This document shows, piece by piece, positions 8,175 to 64,000 of a stretch of 64,000 bases of DNA (position 1 is its first letter; each line of letters starts with the position of its first letter). The position numbers and the translations under genes are program-made. The stretch covers positions 323,655 to 387,654 of the IMG/VR virus record IMGVR_UViG_3300031998_000001; one strand, given 5' to 3'. The DNA is from a virus. Its lineage: Duplodnaviria > Heunggongvirae > Uroviricota > Caudoviricetes. The notes beneath the pieces were generated by a model, which saw only the letters and a program-made list of their open reading frames with translations, had not been told where the DNA came from and did no database searches.

Positions 8175-8528
8175 ATGGTACACATTAGAAGAATTGATGA
8201 AATGGCTTCCCAGACACCAAAGGCAAGCGAAGTATATGATAAGGTCGTAAAAGGATGTAGTCCCTTTGAACTTTATGCAGAAAAAAATACCGATAAAAAA
8301 CGAGGAAAGATAATATTCAGACATAAATTTAGTAACGGTCACGAAACCGTTGAACTGTATTTTAGTAAAGAAACGGACGACATATATAGTTGTGTAATGT
8401 ATAAGGATATTAAAGGTCTTATGATACAACATTTTAGTAATGCAAAAACAATAAAGGACATAGATACCAAAACTTCTGATGAAGTTGCAACCGAAATAAT
8501 CTACTACATTAAAAGAGGATACTGCTAA
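8175..8528 (+). CDS. putative head-internal protein (leader MVHIRRIDEM), AT-rich
   Basis: Leader motif; TATAAATA ~8145. Confidence 0.75.
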   Translation: MVHIRRIDEMASQTPKASEVYDKVVKGCSPFELYAEKNTDKKRGKIIFRHKFSNGHETVELYFSKETDDIYSCVMYKDIKGLMIQHFSNAKTIKDIDTKTSDEVATEIIYYIKRGYC

Positions 8529-28125: not shown

Positions 28126-28211
28126 GCTGTATAGCCGATAGACGCGCTTTATAGGCTGTACAGCCGATATTTCGGTTTCCCGAAATATAAATAAGATATA
28201 ATATAAATAAT

Positions 28212-28410
28212 ATGCGGAATGTATGCGGCAAGACATTCCAGATTATAGGCAGCCGTACTGCCGAATACAAGCCTGTGGAGAATCCAACAGCGGATGACCG
28301 TTGCTTATGCAACCTAAAAAGCGGTGGTTCTGTGAAGCAGGAAGGAGGAACTGGCGAAGAACATAGTTTTTCATAGGTTTTCCATACGGTTAAGGCTTAT
28401 TTTTTATTGT
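28212..28410 (+). ncRNA. stand-alone TnpB omegaRNA (scaffold ending ...CCATACGG at 28389, plus putative guide)
   Basis: 28245-28279 is identical to 55740-55774; the remainder covaries with the 3' ends of both tnpB copies; tandem TATAAATA at 28186 and 28202; no tnpB CDS. Confidence 0.75.
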
Positions 28411-28420
28411 CGTAAATACG

Positions 28421-28452
28421 GAAAAGCCCGATAGTCAATATCGGGCTTTTCC
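28421..28452. terminator. bidirectional terminator
   Basis: GAAAAGCCCGAT-agtcaat-ATCGGGCTTTTC. Confidence 0.75.
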
Positions 28453-28477: not shown

Positions 28478-29107
28478 CTACGGTATGAACCTGCATACCC
28501 GTATGTAGTATTCCTCTGGCTTGAAGTCGCCTTCGCCCGCGCAGTTGAGGCGGTTCATCATATCGCAGAACTCCCTGACCGTGAAGTGCCTTTTCGCCTT
28601 TTCTTCGGACATTCCGTTCTTCATATCGCTCCTTTCCTCCCTTTTCACATAGAATCGGAAGTCCTCCTCGCGCATCCTCCCGATGTCGTCCTTGCAGTTG
28701 TTGCCCAGATGGATTTTTACCGAGTGCAAGTCCCTGCGGAGCATATATATGCACATATTCGCCTGCGGGCGTTTCTTGCCCTCGTAGATGCGCAGGTATT
28801 TCCCCTTCAGTATGTTCTCGTTAGACCTGTTCCAAGCCTCCGTGAACTTCTCTATTGTCATCGTGCTGTTGGTCAGGCTGTCTATCTTTCCGTATTTCTT
28901 GATAATGTCGTCCAGCGTTTCCCTGCTGATGCCGTTCGTCCATTCGCCCATAAACTTCTTCTGGTCTATGCCCTCTTCCTGCGCATATCTCCTTACATCA
29001 GCCCACCACAGTATGTACGCATCGTATATGCTCTTGCTTCCGAAGCCGAAAAGCCCTTCGTCCAGCGGCTCTCCGCAGAACTCGTCGAATGTCTTTATGT
29101 GTACCAT
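28478..29107 (-). CDS. putative head-internal protein (leader MVHIKTFDEF...LDE)
   Basis: Leader motif; TATAAATA upstream on -. Confidence 0.75.
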   Translation of the reverse strand: MVHIKTFDEFCGEPLDEGLFGFGSKSIYDAYILWWADVRRYAQEEGIDQKKFMGEWTNGISRETLDDIIKKYGKIDSLTNSTMTIEKFTEAWNRSNENILKGKYLRIYEGKKRPQANMCIYMLRRDLHSVKIHLGNNCKDDIGRMREEDFRFYVKREERSDMKNGMSEEKAKRHFTVREFCDMMNRLNCAGEGDFKPEEYYIRVCRFIP

Positions 29108-29210
29108 ATCCAATTCAAAAATATATTCTTACTTATTTATATTTTTTCTGAAATTCCTATTTATTAACTATATATTAGTGTTGGAAAGAAAACAACAAAA
29201 GCGTAAGGAA

Positions 29211-52090: not shown

Positions 52091-52571
52091 ATAAAGTATC
52101 GTGAAAGATTCCTCCATTTATGGTGGAATATGAAACGATACTTTAATTCATTTATAATATATTGGAAATATTAGAAATTTCATCTAACCTTGATTTTCTA
52201 TGTAATGCTTTAATGTCTCTTCGCTTACATCGCCTACACTTGAACAGAAATAACCCCGTGTCCATAGGTGGTGCTTTCCGCTCCAGTACCATTTGCCCAT
52301 ATAGTCGAAATGCTCCCGCCAAGCATAGTATGTCGATACCTGCTTTAACTTGTGTATAATCTCGAACGGTGTGCAAGTAGGCGTTGCCCGTATAAGAAAA
52401 TGAATGTGGTCACATTTCACTTTGTCAATCTCCATAACCTCGTAGGTGTGGGACGCACCGATGTAAAGCGCGTGGAGATGCGGGCAATGATTGACAATGC
52501 AATCAGGTGTTGCAATCAACCTGAATCAGTGAAGCGCGAAGCACCCGTTCTTTAGAACGGGGGTAGTTCAC
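52091..52571. mobile_element. internally deleted IS200/IS605 element (truncated tnpA plus tnpB 3' tail/omegaRNA)
   Basis: Left hairpin TTCCTCCAT..ATGGTGGAA; right end CCCGTTCT-TT-AGAACGGG-GGTAGTTCAC; ends approximate. Confidence 0.75.
52184..52445 (-). pseudogene. tnpA: IS200-family Y1 transposase, 5'-truncated
   Basis: DHIHFLI (HUH), LWTRGYF.SSVG, YIENQG; N-terminus missing. Confidence 0.85.
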
Positions 52572-52590
52572 ATACAGGTATTCATTTTCT
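52441..52590 (+). ncRNA. orphan IS605-type omegaRNA remnant
   Basis: Encodes a TnpB-tail-like peptide VGVGRTDVKRVE...SVKREAPVL*; canonical right-end hairpin. Confidence 0.55.
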
Positions 52591-52826: not shown

Positions 52827-54560
52827 ATGGCTAAAAAACCGACAATAGACGGAAGGAAATATGTGCAGTTGACGGATAATGTCCTGCTCGAATACATATA
52901 TGTATGCGACAGGTATTCCGCAGGCGATGACGAAACCGCCACCGAAGACAACGGTAGCATAAATGACGACCTGATTGGCATTGATGCCAACGGGGAGTTT
53001 GTCGGCACATACGCGAAGTCGGAACACGAATCGTTGGGTACATACGGCTCGTGCCTTGCGGGTAACAAGTACACTGGGGAACTTTACTTCTGCAACACCG
53101 AGAACATAGAGGAATGGACTAAAAATACGCTCTCCACTATGATACTCCCAGCCAACACTGGTCAGACAAAGTGGGTGGAGTGCAAGAAGAAGAACGGAAA
53201 ATACTATACCGAGTACGACAACTACTGGAGTTGGGGTACTGACGGGGACACCATACCGCACAGGCTTATCAGCGGGGACAGTGACATTAGGCTGACGGAG
53301 TTCGCCCACGACGAGTACATTGTCTATGACATAGTGAGGGTGTGGTTTCAGAGCGGATATGTGAGCGGGTATGACGGCTGGGTTCTCAACACATTTACGA
53401 AGGACAAGAAGAACAGGTATGTCAACCTCGCCTGCAAGGTGCTTATGAACACGGACAGTCTGAAGGTCGCAAGCGACCCGCTGTGGTTCAACGACAGGCT
53501 CTACAACAACTACATAGAGTGGAGGCAGCCTTCGGTTGCCCAGATGTCTATGGTCGGGTGGAGCGATTCAATCGTTGCCAGCGGGTGGGCGGAGAAGCCC
53601 ACCGAGCACAGCGAGGGGCACGCATACGACAAGGGCAATCCGCCAGAGTACACCCTGCCGTGGTACTTGACGAGGGGGGACGGCTTCGGGAACAATCCGT
53701 ATATCGGCTTTGAACTCTTCGGTATCGGTGGCACATATACGGAGGACACATACGGATACCCCTGCCGAGTAACTTCACTGCTTACGAGCAGTATGATACC
53801 GAACAGGCAACTCAACGACAACATAATTGCCCGTGTGGGCGAGGACACCGACAACGGCGACTACATCGAACTCTACGGGTACTACATAAAGGATAATGTC
53901 CAGAAGTACGAGCCTTTCAGCCTCTACGAGTGGCTTCGGGACTACGGTGCTGGCGAGTTTACATTCGTACACCAGATTGTAGTTACGGAGAACTGCGTGG
54001 ATGTTACCGACAACTCTGTTGTGTCATATACGCACACCCCGATTTCATACATACAGACTTGGGAGGAACTGACGGAACTTGACGAGAGGAACATAGACCC
54101 GCGCATACGCTTCCGCCCGATACTCGAACACACTGGGGAGATGCTCAACGACAACTGCGGTGCTACGGTAAGTTATGTCCTCCGAATTATGAACCACAGG
54201 GACAACACGAGCATAATAAAGACGGCTTCGTACAGCATAATAGACCCGAAACGCTACGGGCTTCGCTTGAACAGCGTTGATGTGGAGGGAGTGAACAACC
54301 TTCATATCTACAACAGGATAGAGGTCGTTGACGGCGTTCAGGTGAACGGCGGAAGCACGAACCCCATCGGGGAGGGCAACGCCTCAAGGGTTGTGGTCAA
54401 CAAGTTCGTCACCTCATCGTTCATAGACAGGAGGAACATAAAGGTCAGCATATCGCCAGTCGGGATAGTGGACGACAAGACGCAGGCGAGCAGGGCGAGC
54501 GCAACGAGGTCTGGCAGTAACGATACTTCAAGGGTTGGCAACAGTTCAACGAAATCCTGA
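52827..54560 (+). CDS. probable structural protein; last codons supplied by the inserted element
   Basis: TATAAATA upstream; the element begins at 54535. Confidence 0.7.
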   Translation: MAKKPTIDGRKYVQLTDNVLLEYIYVCDRYSAGDDETATEDNGSINDDLIGIDANGEFVGTYAKSEHESLGTYGSCLAGNKYTGELYFCNTENIEEWTKNTLSTMILPANTGQTKWVECKKKNGKYYTEYDNYWSWGTDGDTIPHRLISGDSDIRLTEFAHDEYIVYDIVRVWFQSGYVSGYDGWVLNTFTKDKKNRYVNLACKVLMNTDSLKVASDPLWFNDRLYNNYIEWRQPSVAQMSMVGWSDSIVASGWAEKPTEHSEGHAYDKGNPPEYTLPWYLTRGDGFGNNPYIGFELFGIGGTYTEDTYGYPCRVTSLLTSSMIPNRQLNDNIIARVGEDTDNGDYIELYGYYIKDNVQKYEPFSLYEWLRDYGAGEFTFVHQIVVTENCVDVTDNSVVSYTHTPISYIQTWEELTELDERNIDPRIRFRPILEHTGEMLNDNCGATVSYVLRIMNHRDNTSIIKTASYSIIDPKRYGLRLNSVDVEGVNNLHIYNRIEVVDGVQVNGGSTNPIGEGNASRVVVNKFVTSSFIDRRNIKVSISPVGIVDDKTQASRASATRSGSNDTSRVGNSSTKS

Positions 54561-55874
54561 TAAAAACTATGAATAGTTATTAAAATCAGGCAACATATAA
54601 ATAATATGATGTTACGGGCGTTGAAGATACGGCTATATCCGAACGGGGAACAGCAGACCAAGATGAACAAGGTCTTGGGCTGCTATCGGTTTGTATATAA
54701 CCAGTGCCTTGAACGGAAGATAAGTGCATATAAGGACGAAGGTGCTTCGTTAGGTCTGACCGACCTGTCCAAGTGGTTTCACGGAACACTGCTCAAGGAC
54801 GACAACTATATTTGGCTTCGTGAACAGAACACGAAGGTTATGAAACAGGCAATCCGACAGATGCTCACGGCATATACCAACTTCTTCAAGTTGCATAGGG
54901 GCTTTCCGAAGTTCAAGAGCAAGCACGACACAATCCTGTCTGCATTATTTCCATTGGAAGCCATATCGTCCCGTAATACATTCGACGATAGAAAGATAAC
55001 ATTAACTAAAGATTTAAGCAATATTCGTTTCAGGTGCTCCAAGTTATACCACAACAGGTTAAAGGCGTATAAGGGCAATATAAGAATCGCAACCCTGTCG
55101 AGAACCAAGACTGGCAAGTATTTTTTATTCGTCCTTATGGACATTCCAGACGATGAACTTATACGGTTCAGGAAGACTGGAAATGCCGTGGGCATAGACT
55201 TGGGCGTAAAGGACTTTGTTATAACGAGCGACGGGGAAGTGTTTGAAAACAGGCACTTCTTCAATAGAACCGAGCACAGGATTAAGGTCTTGCAGAAACA
55301 ACTGTGCAGGAAGGTCAAGGGTTCTAACAACCGTATGAAGCAAAGGATACGGCTTGCAACCGCCTATGAACGGCTGGCGAACCAGCGCGAAGCCTACATA
55401 CACTATGTCGTTAACTCGTTGCTGAAGGACTACGACACAATCTGTATGGAAGATTTGAATGTGCGCGGTATGCTCCGCAACCACAAACTTGCGAAGGCTA
55501 TCGCCGAAGTTGGCTTGTACAGGTTCAGAACCGTATTGACCGACAAGGCTGTGCTAAACGGCAAGAGCGTAGTCTTTGTCGATAGGTTCTATCCTTCGTC
55601 GAAGACCTGTTCCGTATGCGGTTATGTAAAGAAGGACTTGACGCTCAAGGACAGGGAATGGACTTGTCCCGAATGCGGAACGCACCACGACCGAGATGTC
55701 AATGCCTCGGTAAACATCCTGAACGAAGGGAAGAGAATAATAGGCAGCCGTACTGCCGAATACAAGCCTGTGGACTGCCCGACTATGGATGACCGTTCAG
55801 CAATGAACCTAAAAAGTAGTGGCAGGGCGAAGCAGGAAGGGGATGCCTAACTTTTATTAGGTTTCTTCATACGG
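54535..55874 (+). mobile_element. non-autonomous tnpB-only element (IS607-like GG junctions), copy 1
   Basis: Left end TTGGCAACAGTTCAA after AGGG; right end ...CATACGG; both shared with copy 2. Confidence 0.8.
54606..55850 (+). CDS. tnpB: TnpB RNA-guided endonuclease
   Basis: KIRLYP, GIDLGVK, MEDLNV, PSSKTCSVCG, CPECG, HDRDVNAS; D-E-D intact. Confidence 0.95.
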   Translation: MMLRALKIRLYPNGEQQTKMNKVLGCYRFVYNQCLERKISAYKDEGASLGLTDLSKWFHGTLLKDDNYIWLREQNTKVMKQAIRQMLTAYTNFFKLHRGFPKFKSKHDTILSALFPLEAISSRNTFDDRKITLTKDLSNIRFRCSKLYHNRLKAYKGNIRIATLSRTKTGKYFLFVLMDIPDDELIRFRKTGNAVGIDLGVKDFVITSDGEVFENRHFFNRTEHRIKVLQKQLCRKVKGSNNRMKQRIRLATAYERLANQREAYIHYVVNSLLKDYDTICMEDLNVRGMLRNHKLAKAIAEVGLYRFRTVLTDKAVLNGKSVVFVDRFYPSSKTCSVCGYVKKDLTLKDREWTCPECGTHHDRDVNASVNILNEGKRIIGSRTAEYKPVDCPTMDDRSAMNLKSSGRAKQEGDA

Positions 55875-55891
55875 TAAGGAGATAGTTTGAT

Positions 55892-62291: not shown

Positions 62292-62681
62292 ATGGTACGC
62301 GGCGGACATATTGCGCTTTCATTCTCGGAGTTTGTGTCCGAGATGAAGTCGGGCACGAAAGTCCCTCGTTGCATCTATGAGGGAAGGTCGTCAGACCTTA
62401 TGCAACATCATTACCCAGACGATGAGGTGAAGTCCGCAGTGTGGGACTATGTTCTCGGCTACACCACGAGCGTCAACAATGAACTCCGAAAGGGGAGGAA
62501 AGGCGTGGCGAAGCAGGTGTCCGACCTGCTCGACAGGGCGTTCACGAAGAAGATGAAACTCGATGTCTATCGGACGGTGGACTGGGCTTTTATGGAAAAC
62601 ATATTCGGGATAACGAAGGACAACATAGGCGATATGGCAGGACGGGTTATCACGGACAAGGGGTTGGCAACAGTTCAATGA
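62292..62681 (+). pseudogene. VIP2/Alt-like ADP-ribosyltransferase, N-half, interrupted by a tnpB element at 62664
   Basis: Y...Y..VN.ELR..., LD.AF, VYR, G..ITDKG| ; the STS and ExE motifs are missing, presumably beyond the element. Confidence 0.7.
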
Positions 62682-63999
62682 AATCTTGATAAAAACTATG
62701 AATAGTTATTAAATCAGGCAACATATAAATAATATGATGTTAAGGGCGTTGAAGATACGGCTATATCCTAACGGGGAACAAACCACAAGGTTCAATCGGG
62801 TCTTGGGGTGCTACCGCTTCGTCTATAACCAGTGCCTTGAACGGAAGATGAATGCCTATAAGGATGAAGGTGCTTCATTGGGCTTGACCGACCTGTCCAA
62901 GTGGTTTCACGGAACACTGCTCAAAGACGACAAGTATGCTTGGCTTCGTGAACAAAATACAAAGGTTATGAAGCAGTCCATAAGGCAGATGCTTACAGCC
63001 TATGCAAACTTCTTTAAACTCCACAGGGGCTTTCCGAAGTTCAAGAGCAAGCACGACACTGTTCTTTCTGCTTTATTCCCCATTGATGCCATATCGAAGC
63101 GCAATACATTCGACGATAGAAAGATAACATTAACAGGAGATTTAAGCGATATTCGTTTCAGGTGCTCCAAGTTATACACCAATAGGCTTAAAATGTTCAA
63201 GGACGGCATACGAAGCGCAACCCTGTCGAGAACCAAGACTGGGAAATACTTCCTATCCGTCCTTATGGACATTCCAGACGATGAACTGGTGAAGTTCAAG
63301 CGGACTGGGAACAGCGTGGGCATAGACTTGGGTGTAAAGGACTTCGTGATTACATCCGATGGCGAAGTATTCGAGAACAAGCACTTCCTCAAGAGAACCG
63401 AGCATAGGATTAAGGTCTTGCAGAAGCAGTTGAGCAGGAAAGCCAAAGGCTCGAACAACAGGTTCAAGCAACGGATACGGCTTGCAACCGCTTACGAGCG
63501 GTTAGGCAACCAAAGGGAAGCCTACATACATTATGTAGTCGATTCACTGCTGAAGAATTACGACACGGTGTTTATGGAAGACCTTAATGTCAAGGGGATG
63601 CTGAAGAACCACAAGTTAGCGAAGGCTATCGCCGAGGTCGGCTTATACAGGTTCAGAACCGTATTGACCGACAAGGCTACGGTTAATCATAAGAGTGTAG
63701 TCTTTGTTAACCGTTTCTATCCGAGTTCAAAGACTTGTTCCGTATGCGGATATGTAAAGAAGGACTTGACATTGAATGATAGGGAATGGACTTGTCCTGA
63801 ATGCGGAACACACCACGACAGGGACTTGAACGCATCAATCAACATCCTGAACGAAGGTAAACGAATTGTAGGTGTCCGTAGCACCGAACTTACGCCTGTG
63901 GACTGCCCAACTATGGATGACCGTTCAGCAATGAACCTAAAAAGTAGCGGCAGGATGAAGCAGGAAGGAGAAACTGATTTATTAGGTTTTTCCATACGA
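62664..63999 (+). mobile_element. non-autonomous tnpB-only element, copy 2
   Basis: Same left end after GGGG; right end ...CCATACGA. Confidence 0.8.
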
Positions 64000-64000
64000 T
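62734..64000 (+). CDS. tnpB: TnpB RNA-guided endonuclease, no stop within the window
   Basis: Close paralog of 54606-55850 with D-E-D intact; the frame runs ...KQEGETDLLGFSIR to the window end. Confidence 0.9.
   Translation, partial: MMLRALKIRLYPNGEQTTRFNRVLGCYRFVYNQCLERKMNAYKDEGASLGLTDLSKWFHGTLLKDDKYAWLREQNTKVMKQSIRQMLTAYANFFKLHRGFPKFKSKHDTVLSALFPIDAISKRNTFDDRKITLTGDLSDIRFRCSKLYTNRLKMFKDGIRSATLSRTKTGKYFLSVLMDIPDDELVKFKRTGNSVGIDLGVKDFVITSDGEVFENKHFLKRTEHRIKVLQKQLSRKAKGSNNRFKQRIRLATAYERLGNQREAYIHYVVDSLLKNYDTVFMEDLNVKGMLKNHKLAKAIAEVGLYRFRTVLTDKATVNHKSVVFVNRFYPSSKTCSVCGYVKKDLTLNDREWTCPECGTHHDRDLNASINILNEGKRIVGVRSTELTPVDCPTMDDRSAMNLKSSGRMKQEGETDLLGFSIR

Follow-up and report, generated by a model that had tools for sequence, protein, structure and literature searches.

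The window analysed here, a stretch of 64,000 nucleotides, comprises the final 64 kb of a virus record that is 387,654 bases long and whose two ends overlap by 127 bases. Positions 28245-28390 of its plus strand are a complete IS607-type (RAGATH-18-like) omegaRNA scaffold, pseudoknot included. The scaffold, which corresponds to the right end of an IS607-type element (28245-28389), was assigned by homology, by a match to the Rfam family RF03064 and by a six-helix pair model, and comprises SL1 (28248-28262), a RAGATH-18-like core (28272-28343), a 3' stem (28344-28383) and a pseudoknot between 28253-28257 and 28385-28389, all on the plus strand; these parts are placed by the structure model and, in the case of the core, also by the RF03064 match. 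The solo copy satisfies 28 of the 29 pairs of this model with all six helices present, and 27-29 pairs hold in each of the 28 scaffolds examined. The pseudoknot (CCGUA/UACGG), which was missed by an earlier sequence-only reading of this DNA, covaries across the family, with the two-sided changes CAGUA/UACUG and UCGUA/UACGA in relatives. The match of the core to RF03064 (RAGATH-18) reaches 27.5 bits (E 0.0056), below the gathering score of 44.9, and no gathering-level Rfam hit is found in the window. The whole unit, terminator included, folds at z -4.0.

As in a standalone omegaRNA, the scaffold is complete (all helices and the pseudoknot), is homologous to that of effector-bearing elements, and has no tnpB or transposase next to it. 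The sequence-only reading had described the unit as homologous to the 3' ends of the two tnpB elements in the window, and 28245-28390 does align to both, with the shared CATACGG end; the 35-nt identity that it reported is exact for the element with tnpB at 54606, whereas the longest exact match to the element with tnpB at 62734 is 15 nt. A tnpB open reading frame and a left end are both absent from the locus, as had been stated, and of the two ends of a PATE or mini-element the unit has only the right one. A tblastn extension upstream of 28245 contains a stop and gaps and is noise.

Upstream of the scaffold on the plus strand lie the two TATAAATA boxes pointed out previously, box 1 at 28186-28193 and box 2 within the 13-mer TATAAATAATATG at 28202-28214. 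The TATAAATA box is found 126 times in the genome against approximately 7.6 expected per strand, and the 13-mer 12 times, 4 of these in tnpB elements. Box 2 is the predicted late promoter of the RNA, which, if T4 late-promoter geometry is assumed, would start at ~28215, just before a 5' hairpin of 7 bp (GGAATGT/ACATTCC, 28216-28239, plus strand). This hairpin is present in the sequence as described, but alone it is not better than shuffles (z -1.44); a similar one precedes the solo copy of a distant phage. The downstream terminator is also confirmed as a predicted intrinsic hairpin of 14 pairs at 28420-28452, to which no strand is assigned; it sits between the solo unit and the convergent gene at 28478-29113 and may therefore be shared. 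A peptide from the 54-codon frame at 28212 was considered and rejected, because the promoter 13-mer contains its ATG and, by eye, no such frame exists in the solo copy of the distant phage.

The two boxes had been read as tandem promoters of the RNA gene, a view that does not survive comparison with other strains. In X7, a run of an independent study in which the flanking genes differ at ~6% of positions, a contig matches up to 28203, then carries ~900 letters of different sequence, and from 28200 onwards again follows the locus through box 2, the hairpin and the scaffold; a second contig spans the guide, the terminator and the downstream gene. X7 thus retains the unit together with its box 2, hairpin, guide and terminator, and the boxes are adjacent only in the present strain. 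In run X8, box 1 continues from 28203 into the start of a MIHIKR-type cassette gene, and a promoter context like that of box 1 precedes cassette genes elsewhere in the genome. Given the X7 insert and the X8 gene start, box 1 is most likely a promoter that served a cassette gene which this strain lacks, and, as judged from these sequences, only box 2 most likely belongs to the RNA gene; the adjacency of the boxes would then reflect the coming and going of MIHIKR-type cassettes. The cassette family comprises 22 genes (counted by pattern) with an N-terminal M(I/V)HI(K/R)R motif and divergent downstream sequence, for example at window positions 8175, 27275 and 46384, and 10 of the 22 have a TATAAATA box within 60 nt upstream. 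Additionally, a dispersed repeat of ~55 nt of the type TCTGAAAT...TATATATTAG...GAAAGAAA is present at window 29143-29194 and in ~35 other places, upstream of genes, and is likely to be a second promoter class.

A contig of run X11 (246 letters, depth 4.3) departs from the locus at 28170 and continues with 23 letters resembling the scaffold end plus flank, no copy of which was found elsewhere in the genome or in the collected loci; it hints at a strain without the solo unit. In the RNA run X24, exact pieces cover the downstream gene, and over the unit no exact piece was found, only diverged short scaffold pieces, in contigs of a kind that cannot show expression.

Resident elements and their target motif

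The 388-kb phage genome (G000, which includes loci L001 and L003) encodes a tail sheath, a head protease and a ribonucleotide reductase and carries 15 tRNA genes, and its best-matching sequencing runs are bovine gut metagenomes. A scaffold search of the genome returned eight copies (a ninth match is the end overlap and was not counted), which gives an inventory of four intact tnpB elements and four gene-less scaffolds. Two of the full elements lie in the window on the plus strand and are candidate trans partners of the solo RNA. Element 1 (54532-55875) has a GGG flank at 54532-54534 and a left end from ~54535, encodes a 414-residue TnpB (54606-55850, plus strand) with GIDLG, MEDL and DRD motifs and a zinc finger, and ends in an omegaRNA assigned by scaffold homology (55740-55875, plus strand). 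Element 2 (62661-64000), with tnpB from 62734, reaches the window end, as does its omegaRNA (63868-64000, plus strand). The catalytic motifs of all four genomic TnpBs are intact, and their scaffolds are of a subtype other than that of the solo copy. Related full elements are carried by Prevotella Lak phages, and TnpBs were detected in 2 of 121 Bacteroidia genomes, at only 41-42% identity.

The RGGG-type target-adjacent motif (TAM) proposed from the sequence holds approximately: of the 10 full elements in which the left end could be placed by eye, 9 have GGG in front of it, a tally to which ~10 further, unplaceable full elements do not contribute. At locus L028, joining the flanks at GGG(G)T restores the CCA end of a tRNA. 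A left end between CAGT and TCAA with a CAGT TAM was considered and dropped in view of the GGG flanks, the L028 tRNA end and the reading frame of the L022 paralog; the empty site of L022 was sought in 11 records, which yielded only the filled site and a paralog. Serine-recombinase-like tnpA sequence, read by eye, adjoins related tnpB genes in L016, L008 and L012, and since no IS607 tnpA was found in the phage genome, the tnpB elements appear to be non-autonomous there. RAGATH-18 RNA reportedly serves IS607 TnpBs as their guide scaffold (PMC11061315, accessible text), and the IS607 TnpB of CboIStron has been reported to cleave TGGG-flanked empty sites with a scaffold that ends in CGG (10.1101/2023.11.20.567912, accessible text), a target and an end that the GGG flank and scaffold end described here fit. 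On the basis of the tnpA-like neighbours, the GGG flanks and the RAGATH-18-like core, the family is assigned to the IS607 type; both linkage to a serine-recombinase tnpA and a GG core with a G-rich TAM at the ends are found. Among the NCBIfam models, the TnpB scores higher on IS200_TnpB than on IS607_TnpB, both below the cut-off.

Three further features were noted around these elements. Upstream of the tnpB at 196 kb (G000 194763-194893, L003), promoter and start codon are separated by a structured leader of ~115 nt, and similar leaders occur in L028, L033 and L050. An open reading frame at window 62292-62681, which is interrupted by element 2, gave no family hit; we take it to resemble an ADP-ribosyltransferase fragment. 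At window 52190-52578, a 5'-truncated Y1 tnpA on the minus strand abuts a divergent omegaRNA-like stretch (52442-52578, 25 bits) that ends in GGGGTAGTTCAC, and the region is probably an internally deleted IS605-type element, that is, a second gene-less scaffold of another family in the window.

Gene-less scaffolds and their stems

Beyond the solo locus, the genome holds three more gene-less copies that the sequence-only reading had not noticed. Whereas the 306-kb copy has a left-end-like stretch, those at 310, 311 and 352 kb have no left end, the last being the solo copy at 28245. A close relative, L051, carries counterparts of the 310- and 311-kb copies and another solo directly after tRNA-Gln (L051 4900-5090), in which the 3' stem is shortened but re-formed and the flank is a broken tRNA-like sequence. 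One more solo lies among the tRNAs of a distant phage, G001, whose tail sheath is 40-53% identical to that of the present phage. In a tree of 28 scaffolds, which needs care because the scaffolds look mosaic, these seven copies without a left end, which come from three phages, group in a single clade with support of 98/99, and the solos L015 and L030 fall outside it with their own full elements. Placement of the solo copy as sister of element 1 (p-AU 0.0004) or of the phage's 86-kb element (p-AU 0.008) is rejected, and a grouping of this copy with all resident elements together is not rejected (p-AU 0.06). Gene conversion or recent transfer could be an alternative source of the clade.

All seven copies begin with ATAGG, the first bases of the scaffold, directly after unrelated upstream DNA, and at least four of their flanks are unrelated. 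Across the seven, pairing holds in 98.2% of cells and two-sided changes affect four pairs, a level that none of 500 shuffles reached; the sequences are related and the structure was drawn from them, and such sequences can exceed shuffles without structure, and each two-sided change comes from a single sequence. The two-sided changes of the distant solo are absent from the 16 full or internally deleted elements examined. The G001 solo and the 311-kb solo agree at 118 of 136 bases (87%) and share a 3' flank, and the best-matched tRNAs of the two phages are 85-94% identical; this similarity could be due either to selection or to a recent transfer from phage to phage. No TnpB was found in the G001 record, which is 96% complete. 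Taken together, the clade, the common boundary, the stem changes and the G001 copy suggest maintenance rather than simple decay, as far as such comparisons reach. Two orthologous solo flanks differ at 4 of their first 20 bases, 2 of these near the start. Several copies lie within tRNA clusters, some of them directly after a tRNA 3' end; the solo at 28245 lies outside any tRNA cluster. A search for syntenic loci by way of the flanking proteins found none in viral contigs or in four phage records.

The stem changes of the solo copy had been read as covariation and as a mark of its domestication. Among the swaps listed, GAATCC/GGTTC includes a U.G pair, and there is an A.G mismatch in ACAGC/GCGGT. 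Moreover, the same stems occur in full elements of other phage and metagenome contigs, GAACC/GGTTC in L050, L036 and L008 and GTTG/CAAC in L050, L036, L016 and the phage's own 86-kb element, which removes them as evidence of domestication: by sequence comparison, the listed swaps are differences between scaffold subtypes. The letters private to the solo copy are those at 28283, 28289 and 28291, which yield one wobble, one mismatch and one stronger pair. Because X7 has the canonical letters, these changes appear to be recent and not compensatory, and they do not show selection on the solo copy itself, as far as the alignment indicates.

Several other features of the tRNA-rich region were recorded. 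The 306-kb copy (G000 306.1-306.4 kb, L001 6150-6420) is a gene-less mini-element with its own TATAAATA box and a resident-type scaffold; this type is found with a different 3' flank in runs X8 and X9, and may still be mobile. A 74-nt non-tRNA segment with the hairpin ATGGTCGT/ACGACCAT lies in the tRNA cluster (G000 310749-310822, L001 10750-10823) and in L073; it is 93% identical between this phage and G001, has no Rfam hit and is possibly an undescribed small RNA. Tandem repeats of ~65 nt separate tRNA genes at G000 307.6-308.2 kb and 311.6-311.8 kb and differ in copy number in L051, and a tRNA-Phe with an AAA anticodon is called in both phages (G000 307226-307303; L073).

The putative guide, the search for targets and possible roles

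The putative guide, TTAAGGCTTATTTTTTATTG (28390-28409, plus strand), follows the scaffold, and its first T may be the last scaffold base; a T follows CATACG(G/A) in all eight genomic copies, and the predicted target, GGG-TTAAGGCTTATT..., is the same in either case. The guide is predicted to be mostly unpaired (0.79 over the first 12 nt), and in X7 and X9, which have one extra T after 28399, its first 15-16 bases are unchanged. The sequence-only reading had found no RGGG-flanked match to the guide in the window, a result that is confirmed here and extended to the whole genome. In viral contigs (IMG/VR), eight hits to GGG plus 14 guide bases were found and none longer; in GTDB, two hits of 16 bases, in unrelated Saprospiraceae and Thermodesulfovibrio assemblies; and the 401 Bacteroidia genomes gave 15 near-matches, compared with 23 for a reversed control. 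A plasmid search gave weak partial matches only. The sister guides have no targets in viral contigs, and their near-matches in 35 of the 401 genomes are fewer than those of the control; for none of six solo or mini-element guides was a target above chance found in the DNA searched. A TAM-flanked target other than its own flank was thus found in none of these collections, which may not include the host. Two candidate matches were discarded: the tnpB leader of another phage, the best match at 17 of 20 bases, has no GGG and is equalled by 13 of 100 shuffled guides, and two near-matches of different guides, 5.6 kb apart in G198, have at least 4 mismatches in 20, with GGG beside only one.

The reading tentatively preferred here, as a possibility somewhat short of an even chance, is that of a complete nuclease-less omegaRNA gene whose product is loaded in trans by TnpB and cuts GGG plus flank in sister phages that lack the insert. 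Its starting points, namely the scaffold, the promoter box, the terminator, the lineage and the retention in relatives, are directly observed. From the sequence features, we infer that late transcription probably runs from box 2 to the terminator and that the RNA is probably bound by TnpB supplied in trans, either by the intact elements of the phage or by another phage that co-infects. The guide is probably an old insertion flank and not a chosen spacer, and a loaded nuclease would therefore cut GGG plus flank in insert-less sister phages; we infer both this cleavage and the existence of the empty allele. Through homing or marker exclusion, such cutting would favour the solo allele, which costs only ~150-240 bases. 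A guide of the flank type is supported by the broken tRNA-like flank of the L051 solo and by the 3' stem of the solo copy, which resembles that of long-type full elements. This homing reading is favoured by the 28 satisfied pairs, the 98/99 clade, the retention in X7 and the four intact TnpBs. Against it stand the lack of an empty allele or target in the collections searched, the persistence of a solo in G001 where no TnpB was found, the difference in subtype from the scaffolds of all four resident elements, the surviving grouping with these elements (p-AU 0.06), the non-compensatory private changes and the X11 hint of loss. Of the earlier proposal of a domesticated trans-acting omegaRNA, the standalone and structurally complete gene, kept in X7 and belonging to a lineage with signs of structural selection, is retained, and its reprogramming against a chosen target is not.

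An inert remnant, in which the right end outlasted tnpB and the left end, was copied or homogenised by recombination among repeats and is transcribed by accident, is rather unlikely but deserves weight. The presence of the supposedly compensatory stems in full elements, the mosaic scaffolds, the commonness of gene-less or internally deleted copies in the family (L012, L015, L030, L031), the broken pair among the private changes and the possible loss in X11 all fit such a remnant, and the ~900 letters of X7 could hold a left end, which would make the unit a decayed mini-element. However, each of the seven solos begins at the functional 5' boundary, the distant solo has two-sided changes unseen in 16 elements, one solo has re-formed a short 3' stem, and copies are retained across distant phages.

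It is also conceivable, though doubtful, that gut jumbo phages keep and multiply a left-end-less scaffold lineage as TnpB decoys, the scaffold being an RNA anti-TnpB that binds and diverts nucleases of the phage itself or of co-infecting phages, with a harmless guide. If true, a decoy would explain the conserved scaffold, the interchangeable guides without targets and the copy in a phage without detected TnpB. The scaffold is indeed conserved while flanks are unrelated among loci and orthologous flanks differ at 4 of 20 bases, none of the six guides has an above-chance target, the G001 solo persists at 87% identity against 40-53% for the sheaths, and several copies sit inside tRNA clusters. 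The solo guide, however, is predicted to be open (0.79), the accessibility of solo guides (0.20-0.79) overlaps that of full elements (0.30-0.92), and the missing targets may only reflect sister phages and hosts absent from the collections.

The explanation offered by the sequence-only reading, in which selection shaped the spacer so that it directs TnpB to a gene of the host or to an unrelated competitor, is improbable. A promoter box and terminator of its own, the open guide and the 15-16 unchanged bases in X7 and X9 would suit it, and a host target may lie outside the sample searched; but the guide is AT-rich, low-complexity intergenic sequence, no match exceeds the control, and the best one, at 17 of 20, has no GGG flank and is equalled in 13 of 100 shuffles. 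The searches yielded no target beyond chance level, and the idea that TnpB was redirected at a particular host or competitor gene therefore lacks support. A role independent of TnpB, for instance as a stable structured spacer within tRNA operons, as a signal for their processing or as a small RNA that acts on a host factor, is very improbable: it would suit the presence of a solo in G001, where no TnpB was detected, and the location of most copies among tRNA genes, in some cases immediately downstream of a tRNA 3' end, but every feature of a TnpB scaffold, the pseudoknot included, is kept and the solo at 28245 lies outside tRNA clusters.

Relation to known systems

Most gene-less copies can be read as debris, and the solo set is harder to dismiss in this way because it is one lineage that starts at a functional boundary, shows two-sided changes and survives in G001. 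With four TnpBs and four gene-less scaffolds, the genome offers a small testable system for distinguishing extra guides from TnpB inhibitors, and it supplies, for a TnpB subfamily encountered here only in large phage or metagenome contigs, a natural variant of the scaffold together with a predicted GGG TAM. In the openly accessible literature searched, neither a left-end-less omegaRNA lineage common to distant phages nor an RNA decoy for TnpB was reported.

Standalone omegaRNAs are known from OMEGA systems, where use in trans is reported or proposed and their role is stated, in the accessible text, to be unknown (PMC10691335). They share with the phage solos a full scaffold without effector or transposase and the presence of effector-bearing elements in the genome, but are described there as mobilised, whereas the phage solos have no left end, form a separate lineage and in one case occur without a detected TnpB. 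PATE-like IS200/IS605 elements are likewise protein-less and have an omegaRNA that needs TnpB in trans; as described in the accessible part of that report (PMC10055086), however, they retain both ends and belong to IS200/IS605, whereas the phage solo is a right end only and IS607-type, so that the 306-kb copy with its left-end-like stretch is the closer analogue. With the RF03064 reRNA (PMC11061315) and the CboIStron omegaRNA (10.1101/2023.11.20.567912), as far as their accessible texts describe them, the phage solo shares a RAGATH-18-like core, a pseudoknot, a G-rich TAM and a CGG end; it differs in score (27.5 versus 44.9 bits), in length (~145 versus 187 nt) and in having no adjacent tnpB or intron.

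Solitary, protein-less guide-RNA handles in viral genomes are also represented by the Racr RNA anti-CRISPRs, which, according to the accessible text (PMC13670838), mimic CRISPR repeats and inhibit host Cas proteins; the handle in the present phage is instead a TnpB scaffold, and any inhibition by it is hypothetical. The outcome proposed for the preferred homing reading, in which a co-infecting relative is cut and inheritance is biased, tRNA clusters included, is the same as that described for the free-standing homing endonucleases SegB and SegF of T-even phages in the accessible part of that account (PMC13565253). Unlike in SegB and SegF, the specificity of the phage solo would reside in a separate RNA gene that draws on a shared RNA-guided nuclease.
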